Below, piece by piece: positions 3,701 to 23,280 of a stretch of DNA of 23,280 bases (positions are counted from its first letter, which is position 1; each line of letters starts with the position of its first letter). Below the pieces are notes generated by a model. That model saw only the letters and a program-made list of their open reading frames with translations, did no database searches and was not told the origin of the DNA. The DNA lies in contig JANLPS010000270.1 in the NCBI GenBank assembly GCA_031367385.1, positions 1 to 23,280 of the forward strand. The letters are read 5' to 3'. Made by a program: the position numbers and the translations under genes. Origin of the DNA: Archangium sp. GTDB lineage: Bacteria > Myxococcota > Myxococcia > Myxococcales > Myxococcaceae.

Positions 3701-6075
3701 AGCACCACCTCGGGCCTCGCCGCGTCGGCCACTTCGACGCGCACCATGCCAAGCGCATCGGCGTCGAGCTGCGAGGCACCGCGGCCCTTGACGATCTTGG
3801 TGCGGGCTTCGGCGATCTTCACCGGCTTGCCATCGGAGCTGACTCGCACCAACCGCACCACCACCTCGGCGTCGACCGGGCGGCCATTTGGGTCTTCGGC
3901 GCGCAGCTGCAGCCCGACTTTCTCGCCTGGCTTGTAGAGGTAGTGACCCGAGCGAACGTCGACGAAGGAGGGCGTGGTGACGACTTTTACTGAGCCTGCT
4001 CCGGCGATCTCTCGGCGTGAGCTGTCGGTGATCAACACCTGCGCCGAGTACTGCAGCGACGCCTCGGTCAGCTCCGCAGCCTTGGGCACTTCGAACTCCG
4101 CCGTGCCATCAGCGCCGGTTTTGAAGAGCACGGTGTATTGCGCGAGCTCCGGGTTGTATGAGCGGTAGCGCCTCCGAGAGGTGAAGTCTTGGTCGTCTTG
4201 CGGGTACCCGTCTGATGAGCCGTCTTCGTCTTGCTCGTCGCTCTCTTCGCCGACCCACGGGCCCCAGGTGTGCGCCCACCGCAGCACCAGTACCAGCGCG
4301 CGGCCCTGCGCGTTGCTCACCGCGCCGCCTGAGAAATACGACGCCTTGACCTTGAACTTCACCGGCTCGCCCGGCTTCGGGTTGCCGACCGCGTCGACGC
4401 TCACCGAGTATTCGGGCGGCTTGTATTCTTCGACCCTGAAGCTGCACGGCTGCTGCTGGTACGACTCGGTGTTGCTCGAGACGCTGACGTTGTAGGCCCC
4501 CAACGTCGCGTTCTTGGGCAAGGTGAGCGAGAAGCTCGCGGTACCGAACGAGCTCGTGGTCAACATCGGCTGCGCCACGGTCTTGCCCGTCGGGTCGTTG
4601 ACGTAGAGCTGAAACTTGCGGTTCGGCAGCGCGGTGCTCGGGCCCCCTTCACGCGACCGCAGAAATATCTTCAGGCCCACCGTCTCGTTCGGCTTGTAGA
4701 TCGGCCGGTCGGTCATCGCGTACGCGAGCTCTTCACGGTTCGTGTCGCTGCCGTACCAGTCACCCGCGCCCGACATTGACCAGTTCTCACCGACGTGCGC
4801 CCACACCCGCACCGTGGTGTTGTTCTTGTCACCGGTAAACGTCGCCAACCCGTTTGCATCGGCTTTGCCGGTCTCCTTGCGCCACTCGGAGTTGCCGCGC
4901 GAGTAGAACACCGCCACCTCGGCCCCCGCCTGCCCTACGCCCGTCTCGACGTCGCTCACCCAGACCAGAATCTTGTTTCGGTCGGTCTTGGTGACGATGG
5001 CGAGGTTGGTGACCAGCACATCGGCCATCGCCCGCTCGGTGCCCGCGCTGACCTCGAGCAGGTAGGCTCCGGGCTGCTTGATCGCGCTCAGCTCGAGCTC
5101 TTTGTTGCCGGGGGCGTAGGCGCTGGCCACGTCGAACGGGTCTTTCCACGTCGAGACCACTTCGCCGCTCGCCCACAGGCTGCCCGGGTCGGGCTTGACG
5201 AACTTCGAGGGGTCGACCCGCTTGAGCGTGTAGGTGGCGTTCTTCACGTTGCGCCACCAGACCGTCGCCTTCGGTTTCTGCCCGGGCAGCTCGAAGTTCG
5301 AAATGCTCACGCTGACCTGCTTGCGTTTGATCTCTGCCGCCTGGCTCAGTGAGCTGCTGCGCATGTTCGCGGTCTGGGCCGAGAACCGGCTGGCCGACTC
5401 GAAGAGGGCCAGCGCCTCGCTGTATTTCGCCTGGTTGTTTTTGCGTGAGCCGAGGCTGTAGGTCGCGTCGTCGGCCCAATCGGTCGCCCCGGCGGCGACC
5501 TCGGCCATCTCTTTTTCTCCATCGCCCGCGGTCTTCGGGTCGTTGAACCGGCTCTGGGCCCGCAAGAACTTGGCGTGCGCGATGTCGTTGGGGTTGCTGG
5601 CGAAGCCGATCGCCACCTGTGCCATCGCCTCAGCGCGCACGCGGTCGTAGTTGTTTCGCTCGAGCTCGGTCAGCGCCAGCCGAACCACCAGCGCGCTGGC
5701 CTCGTGGGCCTGGCGCGAATCGCCTTTGGCCTCGGGCTTGAGCAACTCGAGCGCGGCCTCGGTCTTCGACATGCCGAGAATCGCCGACTGGCCGGCGGCG
5801 TACGCGCGGGCAAAGTCTTTCGGGCCACTGCTGCCCAGCTTCTCAATCGCGGGAAACGAGTCGCGGCCTGCGTTCGCGCACGAGACGATCTTCTTCACCA
5901 CGGCTTCGCGCCCGGCGGCGGCGTCTCCGGTGGCCTTCAGATACGCGGTGAAGGTGTCGCAGGCCTTGGCGTAGCTCAGCTCATTGAGCTGGCGATTGGC
6001 GGTCTCGAAGTCTGCGGTTTGCGCAAACGCCGACCCTGCGATCAAGGTGAGCGCGGTCAGTATCAGTCGTGACAT
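796..6075 (-). CDS. bacterial alpha-2-macroglobulin family protein with thioester motif and N-terminal TPR-like helical region
   Basis: ATG at 6075 with GGAG upstream; signal peptide ending AFA-Q. MG2 motif TDRPIYKPNETV; thioester YPYGCVEQTLSRF (CVEQ at 2212-2223); QHSDGGWGWW; C-terminal ELRAEVPGRF...PARAEAMYAPE. Confidence 0.95.
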   Translation of the reverse strand: MSRLILTALTLIAGSAFAQTADFETANRQLNELSYAKACDTFTAYLKATGDAAAGREAVVKKIVSCANAGRDSFPAIEKLGSSGPKDFARAYAAGQSAILGMSKTEAALELLKPEAKGDSRQAHEASALVVRLALTELERNNYDRVRAEAMAQVAIGFASNPNDIAHAKFLRAQSRFNDPKTAGDGEKEMAEVAAGATDWADDATYSLGSRKNNQAKYSEALALFESASRFSAQTANMRSSSLSQAAEIKRKQVSVSISNFELPGQKPKATVWWRNVKNATYTLKRVDPSKFVKPDPGSLWASGEVVSTWKDPFDVASAYAPGNKELELSAIKQPGAYLLEVSAGTERAMADVLVTNLAIVTKTDRNKILVWVSDVETGVGQAGAEVAVFYSRGNSEWRKETGKADANGLATFTGDKNNTTVRVWAHVGENWSMSGAGDWYGSDTNREELAYAMTDRPIYKPNETVGLKIFLRSREGGPSTALPNRKFQLYVNDPTGKTVAQPMLTTSSFGTASFSLTLPKNATLGAYNVSVSSNTESYQQQPCSFRVEEYKPPEYSVSVDAVGNPKPGEPVKFKVKASYFSGGAVSNAQGRALVLVLRWAHTWGPWVGEESDEQDEDGSSDGYPQDDQDFTSRRRYRSYNPELAQYTVLFKTGADGTAEFEVPKAAELTEASLQYSAQVLITDSSRREIAGAGSVKVVTTPSFVDVRSGHYLYKPGEKVGLQLRAEDPNGRPVDAEVVVRLVRVSSDGKPVKIAEARTKIVKGRGASQLDADALGMVRVEVADAARPEVVLAQSDLWLTNEAKPMTPPNPGFQLFTDRGPLKVGHVARVLVVTDRPGGHVLLTLENELIRASKVVELTGRARYVELPVTAAMSPNAFLGATRFENAEWRQLQRPISVTGSDVALAVKVELGRPVVEPGSSLNASILVKNGPAGAPVEIAMTVVDEALFALEKERTDFMTFFGRHRRQLTVRTMSTMNERGFTRRAAEKKPAPSEVLGRDKDSAGLSPVVSAAPASAEDSRINDDLGSGARREEKASKSAESESAPAKRSRKEDAEQPEAAADPAIKVRSDFGTSAGWYPVLTGTVGAPLSQKLKLSDSLTSWKAIATVVSEGPHLGQGHDSVKTAKALMVRLQAPRFFIENDEVILSAVIESHLPSATDIEVSIGAPGLKAMGPASKTVRVTPEQIARFDARFKVSELGDRTIRATVKGGGTSDAMEWKLPALVHGSAQRQFFSGRLTDSFKVEFDLPEKRKASLTNFELLMTPSVLSAMFDSLPYLAQYPYGCVEQTLSRFVPAVIARKAAKDFNLSPDRVPAKLDDMVAQGLDRLASFQHSDGGWGWWHDDHTNLWMTAYVVYALGLAKEAGAPVNAELVTRGRGFLTEHLGEGLNEPETHAFMVFALSSTGSVPKAAIDADFAIRTKLTARARGQLALAMLNAKDSRARIAVENLDDVVKAAQSRKDASVGEANDAWSTSAAIEATAFTLMAMIRYDLKSPLIAPLTDFLVLRRNGGKWRNTRDTAFAVYALAALAKREGASLKSGSFVVFVNGKEVKRIAYSKGGLDLVPLTLPDSALRPGHNVIEVKRDASGTGYFAATFDVFNQNDFIKGVGGDVKIKRTYTLLGKPSTEKSSAPTEYGMPVESGTRVRVDLDITANKAVEFVMIEDLKAAGFEAVMLKSGPEVCNYACAHAELRSDRVAMFLPEVKVGTTRLSYELRAEVPGRFAALPARAEAMYAPEIQATADEMRFEVRDEPTSAVSRQ

Positions 6076-6144
6076 GTGGTCTCCCGAGGCGAAACAGACC
6101 ACGGAAACGGCCGAATCACCGAGACGATCTGCAGGGGAGGGCGA

Positions 6145-7347
6145 TTAGAGCGGCGGCGTCGTATCGACGCGTGTTTCCACGATGTCTTGCACCGAGGTCG
6201 CCACGTCGGAGAGCAGGTCGAGCCCGGTCTTCTCTTCGATCGCCCGTACGGTCGTGCGGTACTCCGTCCACACCTTGGTGGCGGTGGTGTCGTTGGGCAT
6301 GATCACCGCGATCACCTGGGTGGCCTCGGTCAAGCTGGCCGCCGCCGCCGTGCCGGAGTCGAACACCACGACCACTTTCCACGTCGCGACGGGTACTGAG
6401 ACGCCAGACCCGATGGTCGTGCCACCGAAGATCGGGCCCGAGGTGATGAAGACCGTCTTGCCCGCGAGCGCCATCTGCCGCTCTTCGTTCTCGAGGCCCT
6501 TCCACGGGCCGTTGTTCAGGGTTGGCGCCTGGGGCACCACGTTGGTCAGCACGAAGGTCGCGAGGTTGTCGCCCGTGGTGTCGGTGCGGTCGGCGCTCGG
6601 GCACATGTGGCCTCTCGCATAGGCCGAGCCGTCGAAGTCGCCGTTGGTGGCCTGACCCACTGTGTTGGGCATTTGCGGGTCGGGGGTGAACGAGCTCGCG
6701 CGCGTCACGTCTCCGAGCCAGGCACCGTTGAGCTGCCATGAGACCCAGTTCGGTACTTTGCGGGTTGAGTTGTACGAGACCACGTACTGCGGCTTGACCA
6801 GCAGCCAGTGGTTCACATCTCCGATCGAGGCCGCCTCGGGCAGGCCCAGGGTGGTGTGCTTCGAGAGCTGCGCTCCGGCGGTCAGGGGGCCGTGGACGCT
6901 GACGCCGGCGTCGAGGCTGGTCGTGTCGGTAGAGCCGACGGTGACCATCAACGAGCCGCTGAAGGCAGTGACTCCGGTGACTTCGAAGGTCCAGGTGCCG
7001 GCCCCGGGAGCGAGGAAAGAGCAGTGGTGATCCATCGTTGCGGCGGTGCGCAGGCAGGTCTGCGAGCCGTCGGCGGAGGAGACCTTCAGCTTGGCGGTGC
7101 CGTCTCCGGTGAGGTCAACGGCGAGCGTGTCACCGGCTTCGGCGACTTTGAGGGTGTAGAGGCGCACTTGATCGACAACGCCATAGGTGCGGCGCGCGAC
7201 GCCCGACTGCAGCGGCCGGGTGAGCTCGCTCTCGCCAACCACCGCATCGCTCTGCGCGTCGGACGTGGCCGTGTCGCAAGCAGTTGTGGCCAGGAGGCAA
7301 GCCAACACCACAGATTGAAGTCGCGACGGCCGGCTCGAAGAGGGCAT
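6145..7347 (-). CDS. DNA/RNA non-specific endonuclease (NucA/EndoG, beta-beta-alpha-Me) with lipoprotein signal and N-terminal PPC-like beta domain
   Basis: SYNSTRKVPNWVSW, YARGHMCPSADR, TFVLTNVVPQAPTLNNGPWKGLE, VPVATWKVV and IEEKTGLDLL motifs; lipobox-like LATTAC. Confidence 0.92.
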   Translation of the reverse strand: MPSSSRPSRLQSVVLACLLATTACDTATSDAQSDAVVGESELTRPLQSGVARRTYGVVDQVRLYTLKVAEAGDTLAVDLTGDGTAKLKVSSADGSQTCLRTAATMDHHCSFLAPGAGTWTFEVTGVTAFSGSLMVTVGSTDTTSLDAGVSVHGPLTAGAQLSKHTTLGLPEAASIGDVNHWLLVKPQYVVSYNSTRKVPNWVSWQLNGAWLGDVTRASSFTPDPQMPNTVGQATNGDFDGSAYARGHMCPSADRTDTTGDNLATFVLTNVVPQAPTLNNGPWKGLENEERQMALAGKTVFITSGPIFGGTTIGSGVSVPVATWKVVVVFDSGTAAAASLTEATQVIAVIMPNDTTATKVWTEYRTTVRAIEEKTGLDLLSDVATSVQDIVETRVDTTPPL

Positions 7348-11004: not shown

Positions 11005-12570
11005 TTAGAATCCCAACTTGCTCTGGAGCGCATCGAGGCTCTGCTGTGCCTCGACGCAGTCATTCGTGGTCGTCGCCTTCGAAATGCCGACGCTCAAGGT
11101 TGTCTCTTCAGCACGCCAGATGGCGTATTTGGCCGGGCTGTCGGCTGACAGCGTGCCCAGCTCTTTCAACGTCTTCTCGAGAATGTTTCGCCAATTTCGG
11201 TCGGGAGCGCACACCTCTTCGGTGATCTGCAAATACGTTCGCTTCTTCACCTGTTTCGGTTGGCTCTTCGGCACCGCCGGCGCCTTGAGTGAAGCCAGCT
11301 CTTCAATCGGCTCGGGCGGGGGGGGCTCGGCCACCACCGGCCCGGGCTGCACCGCAACCACCGGCATCGTCGGAGCAGCAGCCGCCGGCACCACCGCCAC
11401 CGGCTTGACCGGCCGGCCCGCGAACACACCGAACAGCAGCCACAACAGCACCAGCAGCGCGACGGCCCCCACCACCCAGGGCCACCGTCGCTTGCCTTGA
11501 ACCCGCAATGGCAGGAGCAGCGGTGTCGGCGCAGCGACGGCCCGATTCGTCGGGGCCAACGGGGCAGGGGCGGGCACCACGAGCGGCACCGGCACCGCCT
11601 CCGCGCTCTGCTCCTGTGGGGCCGGGGTCGCCGAAGCGCGGTACGGCGCCACGAAGCCAACGCCCGTCGACCCATCGCTCAGCTCACGCTCGAGCCGGGC
11701 CAACCGCTTCGCGACCTCGGAGGCCGTGGCGGGGCGGTGCGAGGGCTCTTTGCTCATCAACGCGAACACCAGCGCATCGAGCTCGACACTCACATCGGGC
11801 GTCAGGTCGCGCACGTGGGGCACCGCGGCGTTCACGTGCTGCGAGACCATCACGTTGACACTCGAGGCCTGATACGGCCGCTGCCCGGTGAGCATCTCGT
11901 GAAGAATCACGCCCAGCGCATACAGGTCGCTCGAGGGCGTGACCGGCTGCTGCTGCAGCGTCTCCGGGGCGACGTACTCAGGAGTCCCCTCCGCGATCGT
12001 CGTCTGCTGCCCGTGATCTCGCGCCAGCCCGAAGTCGATCAGCTTGAGCCAGTCGACGAACTTGCCGTGATCTTTCGCGAGCTTCAGCATGATGTTCGCG
12101 GGCTTCAAGTCGCGATGCACCAGGCCCTTCTCGTGAACCGCCTCGAGCGCGTCGGCGATTCGCAGCCCGATGCGCACGGCTTGAATCGGCCCCAGCTGGT
12201 GATGCTTGCTCAGGAGCGCGTCGAGGGTCTCGCCCTTGAGGTACTCCATCGCGATGTACTGAAAAGAATCGGTGCGACCGACCGCGAGCACCTTCACCAC
12301 CGTGGGGTGATCGATTTGCTGCAGCACGTCGGCTTCGCGCTCGATCAGCTGCCCCAGCGGCATGCACTTCACCACTGTGCGCTGGCCCGGCAGGCTCAGG
12401 TTGTCGGCGAGAAAGACCGTACCGAACCCACCCGTGGTCAGCTTCTCGACGATGCGGTGGCCGCTCAGCACATCGCCAGGCGAGGGGAGCGCGCCAGCCT
12501 GGGCCTGCGCCTCGGCGCTCAGCGTGTTCGACACGCGAACGGTCGGCTCATTCGGCTCGCTGGCTGCCAT
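11005..12570 (-). CDS. Hanks-type membrane Ser/Thr protein kinase
   Basis: GGFGTVF, VVK, HRDLKPANIML, LIDFGLA, GTPEYVAPE and SDLYALGVILHEM motifs; TM helix (WPWVVGAVALLVLLWLLFGVFA); small C-terminal extracytoplasmic domain with a Cys pair. Confidence 0.95.
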   Translation of the reverse strand: MAASEPNEPTVRVSNTLSAEAQAQAGALPSPGDVLSGHRIVEKLTTGGFGTVFLADNLSLPGQRTVVKCMPLGQLIEREADVLQQIDHPTVVKVLAVGRTDSFQYIAMEYLKGETLDALLSKHHQLGPIQAVRIGLRIADALEAVHEKGLVHRDLKPANIMLKLAKDHGKFVDWLKLIDFGLARDHGQQTTIAEGTPEYVAPETLQQQPVTPSSDLYALGVILHEMLTGQRPYQASSVNVMVSQHVNAAVPHVRDLTPDVSVELDALVFALMSKEPSHRPATASEVAKRLARLERELSDGSTGVGFVAPYRASATPAPQEQSAEAVPVPLVVPAPAPLAPTNRAVAAPTPLLLPLRVQGKRRWPWVVGAVALLVLLWLLFGVFAGRPVKPVAVVPAAAAPTMPVVAVQPGPVVAEPPPPEPIEELASLKAPAVPKSQPKQVKKRTYLQITEEVCAPDRNWRNILEKTLKELGTLSADSPAKYAIWRAEETTLSVGISKATTTNDCVEAQQSLDALQSKLGF

Positions 12571-14815: not shown

Positions 14816-14888
14816 GAAAGGTCTCCCCAAGAGCAGGTGAAGAGACACAGGCGTGCCGAAAGTTTCACAGCGCGCGCACTTCGATGAA

Positions 14889-14913
14889 TGGGCCCTGCAG
14901 GATTCGAACCTGC
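14889..14913 (-). other. att site: displaced 3' fragment of a tRNA gene (T-arm + acceptor strand + discriminator)
   Basis: Minus strand reads GCAGG-TTCGAAT-CCTGC-AGGGCCC-A: a perfect T stem-loop plus a 7-nt acceptor strand and A73. No 5' tRNA half upstream. Lies about 110 bp from the integrase start. Confidence 0.85.
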
Positions 14914-15022
14914 AAAGTATTCTCGAGACTCATGATTTGCGTCAAAATATAAGCACTTGGCTGCACTGAGCCGCACTGCTTAGTGGGTGCGGAGTGGGTA
15001 TTTTTCGCCTACAAACACCTCT

Positions 15023-16036
15023 ATGGATCGATCGGATACGTGGGACGGCGGTTTTAAGCGGCGAAATTCCAAAGGCAAGAAGGTCTACATCATACGCCAG
15101 CGCATCGCGGGGAAGCTGTACGAGGTCAGCACCCGGTGCACGTCGAGCGCTGCCGCCGATGCCCAGCACAGGCGGTTTCAGGCCGACCCGGACGGGTACA
15201 AACCCGGGGGAGACGCTCAGCGCACGGCGCTCACCCTTGACGTTGACCTTGCCGAGGCGTTTCTAAAGTACAGCCGAGATGTCAAAAAGAACTGTTTGTC
15301 GTGGGTCTACGACCAGCAGAATTCGCTCGCATGGTGGCAAGAGCAGCTTGATGGTTGCGACCTTCGCCGATTGACGGCCGACCGCATCGTGGCCGCCCTC
15401 GAGACCCTCCCGAAGCGCAGGGGCTGGAAGCAAAACATCACGGTGCTCAAGACGCTCTACAGTTGGCTGAGAAACGAAAGGCGGACACTCACCACGGCAG
15501 AGGATCCGACCTACGGAACGATCAAGGTGCCGCAGTCGAAACCCGAACAGATTGACACGGTGAAGGCGATCACCCTCGCTCAGTACAAAGCGGCGATGAG
15601 GAAGCTCGAAGACTGGCCTCGCGACGCCCTGCACGTGCTCGCTGGCACCGGTTGGCACGTCTCCGAGCTCCAGCGCTTCGCCTCGGGAGGCAAGATCGAA
15701 AAGCACCCACGCAACGACCAATGGGTGTTGATGTGCCCACTAACGAAGGGTGGGGTACCGCTTCGAACTGAAGTGACCGCGAAGGTGGCAGCGGCCGCGA
15801 AGCGGATCCGAAAAAAGGGCGCGGTCGATTACTTCGAATTGCAGGCGGCGATAAAAGCCACAGGTGCGAAGTTCAATCCGGGCTATCTCAGGCACTCGGT
15901 AGCGACGTGGGCGATCAACTCGGGCGACGACCCTGCGAAGGTAGCGGCGTTTCTGGGTCACAAGTCACCCGCGACGACGCGAAAGTTCTACGCAACGCAC
16001 GCCGTGCCGTTCAAGATCGCCACCCTCGGCGACTAG
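15023..16036 (+). CDS. int: tyrosine recombinase / integrase
   Basis: LAGTGWHVSEL, TKGG, LRHSVATW and FLGHKSPATTRKFY motifs; adjacent to the tRNA-derived att. Alternative GTG start at 14987. Confidence 0.9.
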   Translation: MDRSDTWDGGFKRRNSKGKKVYIIRQRIAGKLYEVSTRCTSSAAADAQHRRFQADPDGYKPGGDAQRTALTLDVDLAEAFLKYSRDVKKNCLSWVYDQQNSLAWWQEQLDGCDLRRLTADRIVAALETLPKRRGWKQNITVLKTLYSWLRNERRTLTTAEDPTYGTIKVPQSKPEQIDTVKAITLAQYKAAMRKLEDWPRDALHVLAGTGWHVSELQRFASGGKIEKHPRNDQWVLMCPLTKGGVPLRTEVTAKVAAAAKRIRKKGAVDYFELQAAIKATGAKFNPGYLRHSVATWAINSGDDPAKVAAFLGHKSPATTRKFYATHAVPFKIATLGD

Positions 16037-16284
16037 CTGATTTTGATGTCGCGTATCGACCCGGCCGACTTCCTCACCCGGGGTTTGTACGGCGCTCGCT
16101 CTGTCAGTAACGCGTCACCGGAGCGAGCCAGAGCCTCGACCTGCTCGAGTGGTATTCGCGCCCGACCGAGCAACGTCACGGGTCGCAGAAGGCCCGTGCG
16201 GATCAATGCGTGAAGCGAATCGTTTCGACCGATGCCGAGCATCTTTGCAGCTGCGCTGAAAGAAAGAAGGATCGGCCCGAACAC
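16033..16284 (-). CDS. excisionase-like HTH protein (MerR/Xis-type)
   Basis: LLSFSAAAKMLGIG...LIRTGLLRPV..GRARIP is a typical Xis/HTH_17 pattern. Convergent with int, with overlapping stops. Confidence 0.75.
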   Translation of the reverse strand: MFGPILLSFSAAAKMLGIGRNDSLHALIRTGLLRPVTLLGRARIPLEQVEALARSGDALLTERAPYKPRVRKSAGSIRDIKIS

Positions 16285-16307
16285 GACGTCATCAGTGGCA
16301 CACCGCT

Positions 16308-16392
16308 CACCGAAACCTCAAGTTTCGCTGCGGGTCGATCGAGGCGACAGGTACTTAGCGATCTCAGATTTCTGACGTGCACCGAAACTTGA
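16308..16392. promoter_or_regulatory. three 13-bp operator-like repeats in a divergent promoter region
   Basis: CACCGAAACCTCA (16308-16320), CAGCGAAACTTGA (minus strand, 16318-16330) and CACCGAAACTTGA (16380-16392). Confidence 0.55.
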
Positions 16393-16424
16393 TCGCGAGA
16401 CGATCGATCGCGTACTGCTGAAGG

Positions 16425-16655
16425 GTGAACCAGAAAACACAAAGCACGATCCGCAAGTCTGGCTGTGCACCTTTACCCGACGATCTGCGTGCCTTGCTCA
16501 CACGCTTAGTCGAGCACAATGGCGTCAAGGCGGCCGTTGCCGCATCAAAGCTCAGCCCGCCTGCCTTTGCGCGAGCCCTGGCGGGGCTGCCGATCAATCA
16601 GGGCACCGTCGCGGTGATAAGGCTGATGGCGCTCGACGCAGGGGCCGCACCGTGA
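16425..16655 (+). CDS. small Cro-like HTH protein
   Basis: GVKAAVAASKLSPPAFARALAG is HTH-like. First gene of the rightward operon; GTG start with AAGG upstream. Confidence 0.6.
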   Translation: MNQKTQSTIRKSGCAPLPDDLRALLTRLVEHNGVKAAVAASKLSPPAFARALAGLPINQGTVAVIRLMALDAGAAP

Positions 16656-16924
16656 GCGGCCTGGCCGAGACCGACGCTCTCCGAGCTGAAAACCAAGCGC
16701 TCAAGCGCGCCGTTCGCCTTGAGATCTACGGCAACCTTGAGCGCGGGATCTCGCCGCACATGCTGAGCGTGCTCGCGATTGCCTTGCCAACCGAAGGTGA
16801 GCGCTATTGGAGCCCTGCGACGGAGAACCTTCGCGCAAGCCTTCAAGCTGGCGTGTTGCCGCTCATAGACCTCGAGCAGATGGTCTCCCGGCTCGGTTTC
16901 ACCTTCGGCGTCAACGGCGCCTGA
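16652..16924 (+). CDS. hypothetical protein
   Basis: GTGA overlap with the previous gene; 90 aa. Confidence 0.6.
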   Translation: MSGLAETDALRAENQALKRAVRLEIYGNLERGISPHMLSVLAIALPTEGERYWSPATENLRASLQAGVLPLIDLEQMVSRLGFTFGVNGA

Positions 16925-16961
16925 AAACAAACGGCCCGGTCACCCGCGACGGTGCCGAGCC
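16924..16961 (-). terminator. putative intrinsic terminator on the antisense strand
   Basis: Minus strand GGCTCGGCACC-GTCGCG-GGTGACCGGGCC (one bulge, one G-T pair) followed by GTTTGTTTT. Confidence 0.5.
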
Positions 16962-16989
16962 CAAGCCACAACGATCGTGAAAGGATCGC

Positions 16990-19437
16990 ATGACTTCCGA
17001 AATCAGTATCACCAGCGAAGCTGAAAACGCAAAACCGGCCTCGATCACGCAGTCGCTTGCACGTATCTACGCGAAACGCGGCTGGCGCGTCGTACCGCTT
17101 CACGACGTCACGGCGGGGCACTGCTCGTGCTCGAAGGGTGCGGCATGCCCGAGCTCCGGCAAGCACCCGCGATTGAACGACTGGGTCACGCGAGCGAGCA
17201 ACGACCTGGCCGTGATCTCCGATTGGTTCGAGCAATGGCCTAACACCAACATCGGCGTGATCACCGGTGAGGCCTTCTTCGTGCTCGACGTCGACCCTGA
17301 CAAGGGAGGCGCTGACAGCCTGGCCGCGTTAACCGCCGAGCACGGCCCCTTACCGCGCACAGTGCAAGCGCTCACCGGGTCGAGAGGCGATCACTACCTG
17401 TTCGCGTTGCCTGACTTCACGGTGACGAACACGGCCGGCAAGCTCGGCCCGGGCTTGGATACGCGCGGCTCCGGCGGTCAAATCGTTGTGGCGCCGTCGG
17501 TGAGCGGCAAGGGCACCTACCAATGGGTGAACAAGCCGTTCGACGCGCCGATCGCCCCCGCCCCCGCGTGGCTCTTGGCGAAGCTCCGGCCCCACGCCCC
17601 TGCTGCACCCCTTGCCGAACGTCAGACGTTCGCCGCAGCGTCGAACGAAGTGCTCGAGCAGGCCGGGCACGCGCTCGACGTTCACGGCCCTGCGATCGAA
17701 GGGAAAGGCGGCGATCAGCACACGTTTGTTGCCGCTTCCATTCTATCGCATGACTTCGCGCTGACCGAGGCCGAGGCTTGGCCGCTGATCGTCGAATGGA
17801 ATGAGACCTGCTCGCCGCCGTGGTCAGAGTCAGACTTGCGCGCCAAGCTTCGCAACGGCGCCAAACACGCGAGCGGGGTCTACGGCTCGAAGCGCACGGC
17901 CGATGCACGCGCCACGGCCGAGAAGTGGATCAGCGACTTCTACGGCTCTGGGAAAGATCCCGAAGATCTCGTCAAACAAGTCAGAGCACTGCGATTCAGC
18001 ACAGCGGTCCAGCGCGAGCTGGTGCTCAAGGATCTGCAGTCTGCGACGAACCTGTCGCAAGCGGCAATCGCCTTGCCGAAAGTCTACCTCAGTGCGCCGG
18101 CCTCGAGCCTTTCAGGCGACGCCGAAGCCCTGGCGCGAGTGATGGTCGCGCCCACTGAAGAGAACGTCGCTCGGCTGTTCGAACGCGAGCACGCCGAATC
18201 GCTTCGGTACTGCAAAGAGTGGAGCGCGTGGCTTGAGTGGAGCGCATCAGTCTGGCGACCAGAGCGAACTGACCTCGCCTTCGATTACGCGCGGGAGCTG
18301 TCGCGGAAGGCCAATTTTGAGGGGAAGGCATCGCCAGCGAAAGCATCGTTTGCGCGCGGAGTCGAGGCTTTCGCCCGGGCTTCACGCACGTTCGCCACCA
18401 CGTCGAGTCAGTGGGATTGCGACTCGTGGATTCTCAACACCCCGGGCGGGATCGTCGACCTGAAAACGGGGCACAAGCGGGCCCACGTCAGCACTGACTA
18501 CGTCACCAAGATTACCCGGGTTGCGCCGCAGAGAATGCCAACCCCTGTGCTCGACAAGTTCTTGCGTGAAATCACCTGCGGCGATGCCGATCTTGCCAAT
18601 TACCTGCAACGCGCACTCGGTTCCGCGCTGTCGGGTGCTGTCAGCGATCACGTGCTCCACTTTTGGACCGGCGAGGGCAGCAACGGGAAAAACACGCTGG
18701 GCGACACTGTCGCGGACACCGTCGGCTCCTACGCGAAGACGATTCCCACCGAGACGCTCATGTCGTCGAAGCACGAGCGACACCCAACCGAGATGGCGAC
18801 TATGCAGGGGCTCCGCTTCGCGTTTTCGTCTGAGGTACCAGAGGGGTCACGTTGGAACGAATCGCGCATCAAGTCACTGACCGGTGACGCGACAATCACA
18901 GCGCGATTCATGCGAGGCGATTTCTTTGAGTTCCCGAGAACGCACAAGCACTTCGTTTATGGCAACAGCCGGCCCCAACTGGCCGTGGTCGACCTCGCCA
19001 TGCGACGCCGACTGCACGTGGTCCCATTCAAAGCGTTGTTCTCCGACGAACTCGGGAACAAGGATCCATTACTCCCTGAAAAGCTTCGCGCCGAAGGGCC
19101 GGGCATCTTGCAGTGGTTGATTGAGGGCCACATGGAGTGGCTCCGCGACGGCCGTCTGACGCGCTGTGAGGCCGTCAGGCGCGAAAGCGACGACTACTTC
19201 GCCAGTCAGAGCACGCCAGACATGTGGCTCGCTGAGAACTGCACCTTGCTGGCCTGTGACGAACGCCCCACCGGCACAATCGAGAAGGCCTCAGTGCTCT
19301 ATGCGAATTTCAACCTCTGGAAGGATTTGCGGGGCGAAGCACCCATGAGCCAAACGCGGTGGGGTGAATGGATGTCGACCAGGTTCACCAAGATAGTGGG
19401 CGCAGGGGTTCGTTACCGTGGAGTTCAACTCAAATGA
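16990..19437 (+). CDS. bifunctional Prim-Pol primase fused to D5/P4-family SF3 helicase
   Basis: N-terminal RGWRVVPL..CSC..C...GKHP, NIGVITG..FFVLDVD, HYLF, LDTRGSGGQIVVAPS; PriCT-like WNETCSPPW; D5_N ILNTPGGIVDLKTG; Walker A GEGSNGKNT; IKSLTGDATITARFM. RBS GAAAGGA. Confidence 0.95.
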   Translation: MTSEISITSEAENAKPASITQSLARIYAKRGWRVVPLHDVTAGHCSCSKGAACPSSGKHPRLNDWVTRASNDLAVISDWFEQWPNTNIGVITGEAFFVLDVDPDKGGADSLAALTAEHGPLPRTVQALTGSRGDHYLFALPDFTVTNTAGKLGPGLDTRGSGGQIVVAPSVSGKGTYQWVNKPFDAPIAPAPAWLLAKLRPHAPAAPLAERQTFAAASNEVLEQAGHALDVHGPAIEGKGGDQHTFVAASILSHDFALTEAEAWPLIVEWNETCSPPWSESDLRAKLRNGAKHASGVYGSKRTADARATAEKWISDFYGSGKDPEDLVKQVRALRFSTAVQRELVLKDLQSATNLSQAAIALPKVYLSAPASSLSGDAEALARVMVAPTEENVARLFEREHAESLRYCKEWSAWLEWSASVWRPERTDLAFDYARELSRKANFEGKASPAKASFARGVEAFARASRTFATTSSQWDCDSWILNTPGGIVDLKTGHKRAHVSTDYVTKITRVAPQRMPTPVLDKFLREITCGDADLANYLQRALGSALSGAVSDHVLHFWTGEGSNGKNTLGDTVADTVGSYAKTIPTETLMSSKHERHPTEMATMQGLRFAFSSEVPEGSRWNESRIKSLTGDATITARFMRGDFFEFPRTHKHFVYGNSRPQLAVVDLAMRRRLHVVPFKALFSDELGNKDPLLPEKLRAEGPGILQWLIEGHMEWLRDGRLTRCEAVRRESDDYFASQSTPDMWLAENCTLLACDERPTGTIEKASVLYANFNLWKDLRGEAPMSQTRWGEWMSTRFTKIVGAGVRYRGVQLK

Positions 19438-19441
19438 TGCC

Positions 19442-19535
19442 CAACGTAAGGCTTCGTAAGGGTCTCCCGTTAAGTCGCTCCAGTGACCCGCAAACTCAAG
19501 TGAGTAACCGGAAAGCCTTACGAACCCTTACGTTG
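19442..19535. repeat. 20-bp inverted repeat of tandem iterons; putative replication origin
   Basis: CAACGTAAGGCTTCGTAAGG (19442-19461) and CCTTACGAACCCTTACGTTG (19516-19535) are 19/20 complementary. Each arm has two CGTAAGG units 10 bp apart. Directly after the primase stop. Confidence 0.75.
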
Positions 19536-19601
19536 ACCGTCACCTGTCGCTTGAACGCAACCCAGCGCAGACAGGTGAACCCCCTGGCATGCCGGGTACT
19601 T

Positions 19602-19646
19602 AGGTTCTTCCCTGGGCCGGGCACGTCACGGGTGCACATGACCGCG
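19602..19646 (+). other. putative lambda-like cos packaging site (cosQ-like + cosN-like)
   Basis: AGGTTCT-TCC (cosQ-like; lambda GGGTCCT-TTCC), then TCACG-GGTGCACATGAC-CGCG (lambda TTACG-GGGCGGCGACCT-CGCG). Spacing is within 1 nt of lambda; just upstream of terS. Confidence 0.6.
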
Positions 19647-19702
19647 ATTCCTCGATTGCTCCCGAACCCAAAATATCTGGTCACTCCTGAAGGGCAGACA
19701 AC

Positions 19703-20303
19703 GTGAAAAAGCCTCACTCGGTACGAAGCGCAGCAAAGGCACTCGGGGTGGCGTTGTTCGCCATGCAGACCGCGATCAAGTCTGGCCGAGTCACCGCAAC
19801 GCCAGAGGGCAAGATCGCAGACCTCGAGGTCTGCAAGATCGTAGGTGTGACACGTGCCGCAAGTCGAAGCTGCTGGCACAGTTTCACTTAAACTTGTCGA
19901 GGTGGAAACACGGTCGAAGCGCGAATGGTTGAAAAACTCGGCACGCATGGGCCCCGCCCCCCTCGCCGACCGTGAGACGCAAGAGACGGTCGATCAGGCC
20001 GAGACGTTCAACGCGGCGCGCCGGCGTAAAGAGGTTGCCTTGGCCTCACTGCGCGAGGCCGAGCTGCAGCGGTTACAGGGGCGCTACGCCCTGGTTTCAG
20101 AGGTCGAGTTCGCGATAGCGCAGGAGGTCACTCGCTGCAAAAGCCACCTACTGGCGATCCCCACGCGGCTCCGCGAAGCCGCGCCGCACCTGACGCCGGC
20201 CGATATTCAGACCGTCGAAGAGGTGATCCGGCAAGCGTTGGTCGACCTGGCGAACGGGGTTGCCACCGTGCCTGAGACCGCGCGGAAGGTGGCGATGCAA
20301 TGA
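19703..20303 (+). pseudogene. Nu1-like terminase small subunit, split into two frames by an 82-nt insert (pseudogene or recoded gene)
   Basis: ORF 19703-19891 encodes an N-terminal HTH (SVRSAAKALGV...AIKSGRV...GKIAD). The ORF ending at 20303 encodes a Nu1-type C-terminus (ARRRKEVALA...LQG...LLAIPTRL...IRQALVDLA). Deleting 19838-19919 fuses them into a 172-aa ORF. Confidence 0.75.
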
Positions 20304-20653
20304 CGCCCCGCGAACGGTTCAACGAGCGCCTGCTTTGCGAAATGGACGAGGTCGACAGCGGCGAGCGTCTCCGGCTCGATCGCTTCTTAGGCCAGCGGAT
20401 CGGCAAGCTCAGCCGCGCCGAGGTCCAAGCGCTGCTTGCAACGGAGTTCGGGCACCTCGAAGAGAGCGACCACCTGGTGATCTCGTGGGCCTACTTCGGC
20501 GAGCCCTACTCGCTGAAATTGTACGCCGAGGCAGTCGACCGCGAGATCGCCGCCGAACGTGCCGAACTACTCGCCGGGATCTTCCGCCGAGCCCTGCGTC
20601 ACTTCGGCGCCCAACCTTCACAACCCGCTGCACTTGGAGACACCACGAAATGA
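20300..20653 (+). CDS. hypothetical protein with S4-like N-terminal motif
   Basis: ATGA overlap with terS; contains RLDRFLGQRIGKLSRAEVQALL. Confidence 0.65.
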   Translation: MTPRERFNERLLCEMDEVDSGERLRLDRFLGQRIGKLSRAEVQALLATEFGHLEESDHLVISWAYFGEPYSLKLYAEAVDREIAAERAELLAGIFRRALRHFGAQPSQPAALGDTTK

Positions 20654-20946
20654 ACACTGACCGAGAAATGCCGAGCGCTGAAATGATGCTTCACGAACGG
20701 ATCGCCGAGGCGACCGGACCCGAGCTTGCCTTGTACCTCGAGAGGCATGGCGAAGCCGTGACGGCCGAGCAGGCGGGCGAGATCTCGCGGAGCGTGTCGG
20801 AGTTTTTAACCGCGAACCTCGAAACCTGGACTCGAGCCGGCATGACTTTCGAGAGCGTGCTCCGGCTCGCAGTTGCTCATGGCATGGGAGTGATCGTCAG
20901 GGTGCTCGGCCTGTCACTCAACCCCTCACCCCGCACTCTGAACTGA
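20650..20946 (+). CDS. hypothetical protein
   Basis: ATG 20650 in ATGA overlap, GGAG upstream; MNTDREMPSAEMMLHERI..., helical-looking sequence. Confidence 0.65.
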   Translation: MNTDREMPSAEMMLHERIAEATGPELALYLERHGEAVTAEQAGEISRSVSEFLTANLETWTRAGMTFESVLRLAVAHGMGVIVRVLGLSLNPSPRTLN

Positions 20947-20953
20947 GACCGCC

Positions 20954-21496
20954 ATGACCACCGAGACCACTAAAGATCTTCGCTTCCAGACACTCGACCT
21001 CGAGGCCTTCAAGCGCTCTGCAACGCGTTTGACCGAGGTCGGTCAAGCAGATCGCATCTTGACCGAGGCCGAGATCACCACGGCGCGCGAGCGGATAATG
21101 CCCAAGATCCTGGAAGCGATCGACGCCTACCTGAACAAGCGCAGCGGGGCGGCCCCCTCGCCAACCGAATACGCCGCCATGCGTTCGAAGGCGTGGAGTT
21201 ACTCGGCGGCGCTCGTGCTGGCATGGCGCGACTCACGCAACGGCATGCGCCCGATGCAGGTCGACCGAGCGGCCAAAGAACTCGGCGAGGTCATCGGCGG
21301 GCTGACCCCGACCCTGGCTGAGCTCCGCGACCTGGAATCCGAGGTCGAGGCAGGCGAACGGCGCCTCGCTGCGCTCGAGCGAGACCGCGAGAGTCAAGCC
21401 CGAGAGGAACAGCGGCAAGCGGCGTTCGCAGAACTTGCGGCAAGGTTCAAAGAGCGCCACGGCGTCACTGTCGTTGAAGTTCCGAGCGAGGGCTGA
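20954..21496 (+). CDS. hypothetical protein with C-terminal coiled coil
   Basis: 7 bp after the previous stop; LAELRDLESEVEAGERRLAALERDRESQAREEQRQ heptad-like segment. Confidence 0.7.
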   Translation: MTTETTKDLRFQTLDLEAFKRSATRLTEVGQADRILTEAEITTARERIMPKILEAIDAYLNKRSGAAPSPTEYAAMRSKAWSYSAALVLAWRDSRNGMRPMQVDRAAKELGEVIGGLTPTLAELRDLESEVEAGERRLAALERDRESQAREEQRQAAFAELAARFKERHGVTVVEVPSEG

Positions 21497-21498
21497 CC

Positions 21499-21870
21499 AT
21501 GACACCCGACGACGCGGGGCAGGTGACGGCCGAGAGCTTGGTTGCGCTTTTCAATGACCATCGGTTTACAGAACTGGTGCCCCGCGTCTTGTCGACAATG
21601 AAACACGCGGAGATCAAGGCACACCGCGATCATTGGCTGCGCCTCGCGGCTCGGGCGGTGAACACCGACCTCTACACGGAGGGCAAACGGGAGATCGTCG
21701 CGTTCTTGTTCGAGCGTTCTCAATCTCTGCTCTCCGCGTTTCCTGATCAGATTGTTCCGGACGCAATGCCTGATGGGCCGCTCATGGTCGCTCTCCTGGT
21801 CAACGGCGAAAAGCTGCCGTCACGCCGCACCTTTGAGCGGGCGATCCGACCTCTGCGACAAAGGCGCTAG
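21499..21870 (+). CDS. hypothetical protein
   Basis: 2 bp after the previous stop, GAGG upstream; 123 aa. Confidence 0.65.
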   Translation: MTPDDAGQVTAESLVALFNDHRFTELVPRVLSTMKHAEIKAHRDHWLRLAARAVNTDLYTEGKREIVAFLFERSQSLLSAFPDQIVPDAMPDGPLMVALLVNGEKLPSRRTFERAIRPLRQRR

Positions 21871-21925
21871 GTTTTGTCGCTCGAATTTGCGGGCCGGAGC
21901 GTGGGTAGGGCATGGATAGATCCAT

Positions 21926-23188
21926 ATGGTCGCCAAGCGCTCAGCACCCGAAACCACTACTCGCAACGTCGGCCCGCTTACCGGTCGCGCCGCGTTCTCA
22001 CCTGGTTCAGTCAACGATAAGGCTCGCACGGTTGACGTTCTGTGGTCGACCGGCGCCAAGGTGCTTCGCTCGTCTTGGTTCGACGGCCAGAGCTACGAAG
22101 AGCTTTCGATGGATCCCGCGCACGTGCGCATGGGCCGGTTGAACAACGGTGCCCCGTTTCTCGCGGATCACCGTGGCGCGCTCGACTCAGTGATGGGGGT
22201 TGTCGTCAAGGGCTCTGCGAAGCTCCAAAACGGTCAAGGAGTTGCGACGGTTCGTTTCCCCGCTGAGGGTGTGGACCCCAAGGCCGATCAGCTGTTCGCC
22301 AAAGTGCGCGACGGCGTCGTGCAAAATATTTCAGTCGGCTACCGCACCTACAAGTCAGAGAAGGTCGAGGGCGGCGACGAGAAGATCCCGACCTTCCGCG
22401 CCGTCGATTGGGAGCCATACGAGATCAGCGCCGTTGCAATGGGCGCCGATGACCAAGCCGGTTTTCGCAGTGCCAATTTCAACCAACCAAACGAATGCGT
22501 CTTTGTGACGCGAAAGGGCAGCACCATGGAGATCGACAACGAGAGTAGCAACGATGTGGTGGCAGATGAACGCGCGAGGGTCTCTGCGATTCGAGCACTG
22601 TGCAAAACCGCACGGCTCGATGCGCGCATTGAAAACGATTTGATCAAGCGCGGCGGCGATCTTAACGACGTCAGAAACGCGATCATTGACCTGATGGCCC
22701 TGCGCGATCAGGAGCACCCGACCGACAATCACTACACGCCGATCGACGGCGGCGAGTCAGTCGCTTATGGCCGGTTCGCTATGGGCCGCACGGATACCGA
22801 GAAGTTCAACGAGTGTGCGGCGGCGGCGTTGGTCTTGCGGTCGGGCAGCTCGGTGGTCGATCACGCTATCCAGACCAAGGCCAGGGGGTTTGAAAACTCC
22901 AAGCTCGATGCCGGCGATCTGGCGGGCCTGGGGCTGTACGAGATTGCGAAGCGTACGGTTGAGCGCGCCGGCCTGAAGACGGGGGGGAAATCGCGTGAGC
23001 AGATAGCGTCCCTCGCACTGACCCACCGTTCGAGTGCGCTTGCCGCCGCGTCAGACTTCGGCGTTCTGTATGAGCAGGCGATCGGAAAGATCTTGCTCGG
23101 CGCATACGCTACGGCCCCGGATTCCTGGCGAGCGTTCTGCCCACGCGATGCGGATCGGCTCGAGGGTGACGCGATCTGCGGCACGTGA
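21926..23188 (+). CDS. HK97-type prohead protease - scaffold - major capsid protein fusion, apparently C-terminally truncated
   Basis: Protease motifs PFLADH, NISVGY, WEPYEISAVAMGAD; scaffold-like ERARVSAIRALC; capsid start SDFGVLYEQAIGKILLGAY...WRAFC, then stop 15 codons later. Confidence 0.8.
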   Translation: MVAKRSAPETTTRNVGPLTGRAAFSPGSVNDKARTVDVLWSTGAKVLRSSWFDGQSYEELSMDPAHVRMGRLNNGAPFLADHRGALDSVMGVVVKGSAKLQNGQGVATVRFPAEGVDPKADQLFAKVRDGVVQNISVGYRTYKSEKVEGGDEKIPTFRAVDWEPYEISAVAMGADDQAGFRSANFNQPNECVFVTRKGSTMEIDNESSNDVVADERARVSAIRALCKTARLDARIENDLIKRGGDLNDVRNAIIDLMALRDQEHPTDNHYTPIDGGESVAYGRFAMGRTDTEKFNECAAAALVLRSGSSVVDHAIQTKARGFENSKLDAGDLAGLGLYEIAKRTVERAGLKTGGKSREQIASLALTHRSSALAAASDFGVLYEQAIGKILLGAYATAPDSWRAFCPRDADRLEGDAICGT

Positions 23189-23197
23189 GAGACCCGG

Positions 23198-23280
23198 TTA
23201 CCGCCGCGTCATCAGTCGCTTTCGAAGAGCGCTGAATAGCTGAGCCGGAGTGGCATCGGCACGCGGCGGCAACCGGAGCC
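23198..23280 (-). CDS. possible 3' end of a convergent gene entering from outside the window
   Basis: Open minus frame ...LRLPPRADATPAQLFSALRKRLMTRR* ending at TAA 23200-23198; too short to verify. Confidence 0.3.
   Translation of the reverse strand, partial: LRLPPRADATPAQLFSALRKRLMTRR

Follow-up and report, generated by a model that had tools for sequence, protein, structure and literature searches.

The window analysed here, a stretch of 23,280 nucleotides from Archangium sp., is contig C142 of a 7.97-Mb genome assembled in 562 contigs at a depth of about 8. Among the host genes on its minus strand, which were named by eye, are those for a 1768-aa alpha-2-macroglobulin-like protein (796-6102), a DNA/RNA non-specific endonuclease-like protein (6145-7347) and a Ser/Thr kinase (11005-12570). 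A satellite-like element extends from 14888 to the contig end. It begins with a 28-bp att-like sequence (14888-14915, minus strand) that copies the 3' end of tRNA-Met, the intact tRNA-Met gene being located on contig C261, and continues with a tyrosine integrase (14987-16036, plus strand; PF00589), an AlpA/excisionase-like HTH_17 gene (16033-16284, minus strand; PF12728) and a primase-polymerase/D5 helicase (16990-19437, plus strand; PF09250, PF08706 and PF19263). The gene terS, which encodes the small subunit of the terminase, starts at 19703, and the intergenic region preceding it (19437-19703) contains a long imperfect inverted repeat (~19445-19535), a candidate packaging or origin site. 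Further downstream, a multicopy IS-like element cuts a head protease-major capsid fusion (21926-23139, plus strand; phrog_4523) at roughly codon 405 of some 660; the end of this element occupies 23140-23280 and recurs on seven other contig ends. At least ten such clusters of repeated contig ends are present genome-wide, one of them with what we take to be an IS91-like transposase motif.

Judged by its genes, the element resembles a PICI-like satellite, with an att site, an integrase, an AlpA-like HTH gene, a primase and packaging genes but not a full phage module; no family match for terL was found in the assembly. Relatives of terS occur in 12 of 207 other genomes of the bacterial family. An ORF listing of four relatives' regions (L273-L276) gave an integrase-like gene, a replication gene, terS, small ORFs and a capsid-like gene, the latter about 660 aa in the two relatives where it is complete, as read from the ORF sequences. 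Together with window positions 14888-23280 and a second satellite on contig C246 of the same genome (L001), these four make up a PICI-like satellite family of this bacterial family in which no terL was seen. On C246, the satellite carries a tandem pair of integrase-like genes (L001 4816-7614) that encode 449 and 446 aa, and the second has at its 3' end a 25-mer (6325-6349) resembling a tRNA end. No description of such a satellite family was found in the literature searched, in which subscription journals were thinly covered, and the family is possibly of more interest than the insert described below.

The insertion in terS

The gene was identified as terS by a profile match to phrog_57 (E=3e-16), bearing out the assignment made in the initial annotation. 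Two AAG codons, at 19835-37 and 19917-19, delimit a span of 82 nt (19838-19919), and excising this span yields a 172-aa ORF without stops; the codon pair, the length and the fused ORF proposed in that annotation were all reproduced from the sequence, as was a 12-nt near-repeat at 19809 and 19833. The native 5' part of the gene (19703-19831, plus strand) starts with GTG and encodes the HTH helices, the wing and the first half of helix 3. The native 3' part (19915-20303, plus strand), assigned by phrog_57 and the paralog alignment, encodes the second half of helix 3, a linker and long helices. The net 82-nt insertion, on the plus strand, can equally be drawn as 19832-19913 and has a GC content of 52%, compared to 65% in the flanks. 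In the frame entered from the 5' part, the TAA at 19889-19891 (plus strand), 18 codons past the first AAG, closes a 62-aa product, as had been stated. The frame is kept in all 16 registers in which a net excision of 82 nt was tried, and the AAG codons therefore do not fix the boundaries of the insert; a matched codon would arise by chance in about 3% of cases.

An uninterrupted terS paralog lies on contig C246. The fused protein aligns with it without a gap over the junction, as the initial annotation had expected of homologues, with 72% identity 5' of the junction and 57% over the 3' HSP. Where the paralog reads DVEVARAEWLAN, the left part in the window ends with LEVCK and the right part starts with REWLKN. 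An alignment of 96 homologues shows no additional residues in any of them between positions 42 and 47, which rules out a simple 1-nt frameshift or an equivalent segment in homologues. The residue left at the junction after exact AAG-to-AAG removal is Cys, a residue found in none of the 96 homologues, which have Ala (86), Leu (9) or Ile (1) at this position; a motif count in a wider homologue set gave Ala in 101 of 107, and none of the 16 excision registers restores it. In an AlphaFold model of the C246 paralog (mean pLDDT 89.6), helices are predicted at residues 6-13, 17-26 and 40-51, and the break falls in the middle of the third. A Foldseek search returned no match at E<=0.001; its weak rows were winged helices of the Xis/RacA/MerR type, with lambda Nu1 at rank 44. 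A protein search with the 3' part of terS returned only itself.

Viral relatives of terS were retrieved by means of an alignment-based motif from the C-terminus, which would let split genes show up as well; a scan with the single paralog had given none. No split at the insert site was present in any of 64 viral or 13 family terS loci. One viral locus (L075) has a short ORF that covers only the C-terminal part, and another (L084) is cut by the contig start. Many of the viral relatives lie less than 500 nt from where a contig begins, a pattern that cos phages would be expected to show. The 13 family loci come from the 12 other genomes mentioned above, and 12 of them are continuous; the terS of genome G114 (L014, G114:C1:766642-767164) shows a simple frameshift, located in the linker that follows the EW helix. 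A search of the phylum added two full-length terS matches, three that are N-terminal only and one weak match. An 800-aa protein (P0007) contains seven stretches matching the TerS profile, the best of which covers the HTH region.

Sequencing support for the insert was sought in separately assembled contigs of four runs (X1-X4) from two studies, the runs with the insert being sediment metagenomes. Contigs of all four span the insert without any difference there, and none contains the joined, insert-free form of terS, with the qualification that X1 may be the source of the assembly and that contigs drop rare variants. Although a genome of 562 contigs at a depth of about 8 might invite a chimera or contamination as the source of the insert, these independently assembled contigs cross it unchanged, which excludes an assembly error and makes such an origin negligible. 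Both terS halves are stop-free outside the insert and the insert is identical in the four runs, so that neither its age nor selection on it can be read. The IS-like end at 23140-23280 has a depth of 140-270 in X1-X3, against about 8 elsewhere, and contigs of X2 and X3 depart from the window at 23140 and continue for about 3.2 kb in other sequence. Since this element seems absent from X2 and X3, its presence in the capsid gene looks strain-specific and later than the insertion in terS, and the satellite was not demonstrably dead before that insertion. The cut in the capsid gene is compatible with decay after the loss of terS.

In blastn searches the insert is single-copy in its own genome. Its homologues were absent from 60 relatives (best other match 33 nt, E=0.003), from 207 family genomes, where only partial matches of 20-35 nt appeared, and, at E<=5e-4, from about 400 genomes of the phylum, these three genome sets overlapping. 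Searches of 50,697 phage and 72,556 plasmid records were also empty (best E 0.3 and 3). Exact-word scans gave one viral and four metagenome matches (L020, L099-L102), all rejected on inspection for their unrelated surrounding sequence, while two viral scans returned nothing; a recurring 35-nt match in one genus sits in an unrelated coding gene (L086). The second copy that the initial annotation had suggested looking for in this genome and its relatives was thus not found, and as far as searched the insert is unique and unconserved, an outcome counted in that annotation among the signs against its proposal. Nor was an insert in TerS described in the literature searched, with the same thin coverage of subscription journals. 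The insertion in terS is real, measures 82 nt and is a one-off.

The third reading frame of the insert

The third frame over 19837-19920 reads DRRCDTCRKSKLLAQFHLNLSRWKHGRS and is the only plus-strand frame open throughout the insert; its GC3 is 0.64, compared to 0.46 for GC1/GC2. The spacing in the peptide suggested a phage zinc finger of the form CxxC-x3-K-x4-F...G...CKxC, and we then tested this. The finger, CxxC-x3-K-x4-F-x8/9-G-x4-CKxC in our own description, forms part of phrog_5558, phrog_1035 and phrog_2255; no dedicated Pfam model was found for it, the best matches being Stc1 and DUF6510. With x8 between F and G it is abundant in viral contigs (L111-L190), and a host gene on contig C311 (G000:C311 1329-1739) carries a version of it.

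A zinc-finger HMM was built from 84 viral motifs, taken from 80 of at least 121 loci. The peptide scores 17.7 bits on it (P=1.5e-7), a value reached by none of 20,000 six-frame shuffles (maximum 11.5), and ranks second among the 14.6 million six-frame residues of the genome; the family was picked by eye after the peptide had been seen, and the C, C, K, F and G of the profile are fixed by the search pattern. Scored on the unfixed positions, the peptide comes first among the 11 genomic CxxC-x3-K-x4-F instances and exceeds 99.6% of random peptides, yet it ranks with the lowest 2.4% of true members. An hhalign comparison with the zinc finger returned a probability of 49%. Pfam gave no match for the peptide, and its sole PHROG match was phrog_5558 (E=0.069, not significant library-wide over six frames), in a region that corresponds to the same motif in five of five test proteins. 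A pattern taken from the first half of the insert retrieved six viral loci, all of which continue into G...CxxC, and a similar pattern gave 17 matches in genomes, of which 14 read as fingers and three as chance.

The likely captured coding fragment (19846-19914, plus strand) holds CxxC-x3-K-x4-F-x9-G, the first two-thirds of the phage motif. The first CxxC, the K and the F stand at family spacing, and the nine-residue distance from F to G is also present in L246. There is no second CxxC: the fragment stops after the Gly, and the frame closes three codons past the insert. On the strength of this resemblance, the core of the insert quite probably represents a fragment of a phage zinc-finger gene, as an atypical member of the family. 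Searches for a donor returned a best E of 2 in a phage tblastn, a single match at E=0.04 in the family genomes, without the second Cys, and nothing with a tighter pattern; the 17 genome and six viral pattern matches are identical at no more than 31 of 48 nt. The finger occurs in six family genomes, and in the three of these that were inspected (L277-L279) it is not close to the insert.

Three of the five distinct proteins retrieved with the pattern have endonuclease VII, HNH or T5orf172 domains (Pfam) following the motif, and a crude motif count placed nuclease-like sequence downstream of the finger in 24 of the 80 listed loci. The insert might accordingly be seen as what is left, in non-functional form, of a larger free-standing homing-endonuclease gene or a similar element that invaded terS and later lost most of its length; homing-endonuclease genes that split an ORF and were later lost are covered in section 12 of Manning and Atkins (10.1101/2022.08.31.505936). 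However, the insert retains neither a start codon nor a 5' region of a donor gene, no nuclease lies nearby and PF02945 is absent from the genome. Moreover, no terS relative examined has such a gene or a remnant at the site, and the site is a variable HTH helix rather than a conserved catalytic motif. We consider this origin unlikely. The finger is also present in proteins without an evident nuclease, and a homing endonuclease is therefore a possibility and not a finding.

Junctions, folding and the fate of TerS

At the left junction, positions 19832-19844 (plus strand), which hold the left AAG (19835-37), are identical at 11 of 13 nt to 19808-19820 (plus strand). The former is a probable templated patch, which would supply the Cys, and the latter its likely template; a local copy of this kind, within 40 nt, exists at 16 of 8073 element positions. 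A perfect 18-bp palindrome (19817-19834), one of 91 in the 7.97-Mb genome, ends at the same junction, and its last three bases may derive from snap-back synthesis. The local copy and the palindrome are not independent features, and taken together they are consistent with snap-back and then loop-out synthesis. The host has two Ku genes and a LigD, with one Ku about 2 kb from LigD. Bacterial non-homologous end joining can ligate heterologous DNA into breaks, as described for Ku/LigD of Sinorhizobium in the part of PMC6379672 that bears on this, and templated patches formed by snap-back and loop-out synthesis are treated for Drosophila (SD-MMEJ / alt-EJ) in the corresponding part of PMC2943611.

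The initial annotation had mentioned a repair or slippage scar as a caveat, and this is the reading that the evidence favours. On balance, we regard the insert as a likely scar of error-prone end joining that took up part of a phage zinc-finger gene and probably inactivated terS. A break in terS, inside helix 3, would have been followed by copying of a 13-nt patch from the adjacent terS sequence, by snap-back off a short hairpin and then by copying of 19808-20, and about 70 nt of foreign coding strand would have been ligated in. One base of the conserved Ala codon was probably lost, the right flank appearing to retain the other two. The left AAG would be a copy of the upstream Lys codon; as it lies inside the copied patch, the match between the two AAG codons can be regarded as a by-product of local copying. 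We infer end joining as the pathway, and replication-linked template switching would leave a similar mark. The contigs of the four runs contain no pre-insertion allele, and the phage, family-genome and pattern searches contain no donor.

The AAG repeat had also been read as the 3-bp target duplication of a MITE-like insertion, or as the border of a spliced or excisable element. A MITE, an IS remnant or a mini-element removed at the DNA level would account for the 3-bp direct repeat, the genome is rich in IS-like elements, and in a hypothetical circle, as read from the sequence, the ends would pair over 6 bp around a GAA loop. The direct repeat is also explained by local copying at the left junction, though, and the remaining evidence speaks against mobility. 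There is a single copy, with the proviso that repeats can be under-assembled; the ends show no terminal inverted repeat longer than 5 of 6 bp; blastn showed no likeness to the contig-end IS-like sequences inspected; and the assembly, from which collapsed repeats may be missing, has no Y1 transposase or reverse transcriptase. No joined allele was found in the contigs of the four runs, and Rfam returned only matches at E>=1, far under the gathering score. Neither form of the proposal was supported by these comparisons, and a mobile or excisable element is very unlikely.

Several other identities were tried and rejected. Over 11 nt the insert resembles the IS-like end at 23140, but blastn did not extend this likeness. 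A simple array finder returned no CRISPR repeat or spacer, and no Cas1 was found in the assembly, which also lacks RVT_1 for a retron msDNA and a Y1 transposase for IS200/IS605 ends. By eye, and against consensus sequences, attC and the symmetry of serine-integrase att sites did not fit. A diverged tandem duplication of the preceding 82 nt was discarded as the DNA alignment was no better than shuffles, 86% of which were as good.

Of the three-way junction that the initial annotation had drawn for the insert, the first hairpin stood (P ~0.99), whereas the outer stem (P 0.27-0.44) and the second hairpin (P <=0.05) did not; the junction, at -19.4 kcal/mol compared to -24.5 for the minimum free energy structure, is not the favoured fold. 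The imperfect hairpin at 19842-19890 (plus strand), with its core at 19854-19879, is modestly more stable than chance. The whole insert gave z=-1.7 as RNA, with 13 of 200 shuffles equally good, and z=-2.1 as DNA, and its folding is barely above that of shuffled sequence.

The proposal that ribosomes bypass the insert, as in T4 gene 60, calls for take-off with peptidyl-tRNA-Lys at AAG 19835 and landing at AAG 19917, which would yield full TerS. The matched codons and the gap-free product agree with it, as do a hairpin 5' to the codon for take-off with another inside the gap and a strong SD-like GAGGTG 13 nt before the landing site; a candidate case of bypassing in a phage large terminase has also been published (PMC10732093, in the part that concerns it). 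Most of the other conserved features of bypass cassettes, as given in section 10 of Manning and Atkins (10.1101/2022.08.31.505936), are absent. The codon after take-off is ATC, neither a stop nor rare at 27 (26.9) per 1000 codons, and here the caveat attached to the original proposal holds. No tetraloop hairpin holds the take-off codon in its 5' arm; in the minimum free energy structure this codon lies, unpaired or as a bulge, in the 3' arm of the hairpin upstream, and the gap hairpin starts 5 nt after it. There is no mini-SD at -5 to -7 of the landing site, the GAGGTG lying further upstream, as in one published exception. The gap's 3' part is not AU-rich (46% AU), and the gap measures 79 nt compared to 50 for T4 and 20 for the clade with the shortest gap. 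Landing would face competition from an in-frame AAA at 19890, and three out-of-frame Lys triplets also precede the landing site. In addition, the product would place Cys at the Ala position of the homologues, and no homologous cassette was found in the 64 viral and 13 family terS loci. With the matched codons as the one gene-60 feature clearly present and conservation lacking, bypass is highly improbable. On the features tested, the insert belongs to none of the gene-60, MITE and known-RNA families.

The preferred scar reading predicts a 62-aa stub that lacks half of helix 3 and, with it, no functional TerS. The insert had been proposed to switch output between a 62-aa HTH-only product and full TerS, but the 62-aa product ends in the middle of the predicted third helix (residues 40-51), before the near-invariant Trp, and is therefore not an intact HTH domain. 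An HTH-less 149-aa piece might perhaps be made from the GTG at 19854, which an SD-like AGGTG (19843-47) precedes by 6 nt; this site (19843-19856, plus strand) is a candidate start of a 149-codon ORF in frame with the 3' part of terS. The database gene call starts later and gives 118 aa, and no promoter-like site was found near the insert.

Were both pieces made, TerS could be a two-piece or regulatory protein, and proteins split by homing-endonuclease genes that reassemble are known (10.1101/2022.08.31.505936, section 12). The last codons of the insert loosely resemble the native segment that they would replace, 5 of 500 shuffles being as good in a comparison that kept the best of seven homologues. 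When the gene's own 5' part is taken for comparison, however, the likeness is what chance would give (289 of 2000 shuffles and 388 of 2000 genomic pieces), the split would fall within a predicted helix, no relative is split at the site and the later start of the database call does not fit. A two-piece TerS is quite unlikely. We likewise give little credence to the broader idea that a scrap of phage endonuclease type has turned into a working expression element in terS, through a 79-nt hop or an HTH-less TerS started within the scrap; that such an HTH-less TerS pairs with, or poisons, the HTH stub or a helper's terminase seems just as doubtful. Most likely, terS is dead, and the intact C246 paralog or a helper phage could cover its loss.

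The two outcomes would differ in what they teach. A functional insert would be a bypass or gene-in-pieces element at birth, with its coding ancestry still readable, and the first in a small terminase within the searches made here; if it were decoded, it would show how bypass cassettes or split genes can arise from endonuclease debris, and the origin of such cassettes is called a puzzle in section 12 of Manning and Atkins (10.1101/2022.08.31.505936). As a repair scar, it would be an ordinary gene-breaking accident and a legible natural case of a break patched with phage coding DNA, in which matched codons and hairpins mimic a bypass cassette by accident, and it would serve as a negative control for bypass candidates in terminases.

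Comparison with known systems

In the parts of the sources relevant to each system, the insert can be set against four others. Like T4 gene 60 and MobA (10.1101/2022.08.31.505936, 10.1101/2024.12.09.627546), it breaks the frame of a phage-type gene between matched codons, has hairpins and may be linked to an endonuclease gene. It differs from them in lacking a stop or rare codon behind the take-off site, a tetraloop hairpin for take-off, an AU-rich 3' gap, an intact nuclease and relatives, and in looking like coding DNA. The UUA inserts in the large terminase of phiHau3 (PMC10732093) likewise interrupt a terminase gene, the two sides of which adjoin each other in relatives, but they measure 10 nt, start with the rare UUA, recur in three genes and affect TerL, whereas the insert described here measures 82 nt, is unique and affects TerS.

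The element as a whole has an integrase, an AlpA-like HTH gene, a primase, terS and a capsid gene in common with the PICIs of Gram-negative bacteria (PMC6092414). In contrast to these, it carries a protease-capsid fusion and comes from a probable myxobacterium. Closest to the preferred reading are the end-joining systems of Sinorhizobium (PMC6379672) and Drosophila (PMC2943611), with foreign DNA at the break, small changes at the ends, direct and inverted repeats of neighbouring sequence at the junction and a host with Ku and LigD. Compared to these, the event in terS is natural, single and undated, and the templated-patch model is a eukaryotic one.
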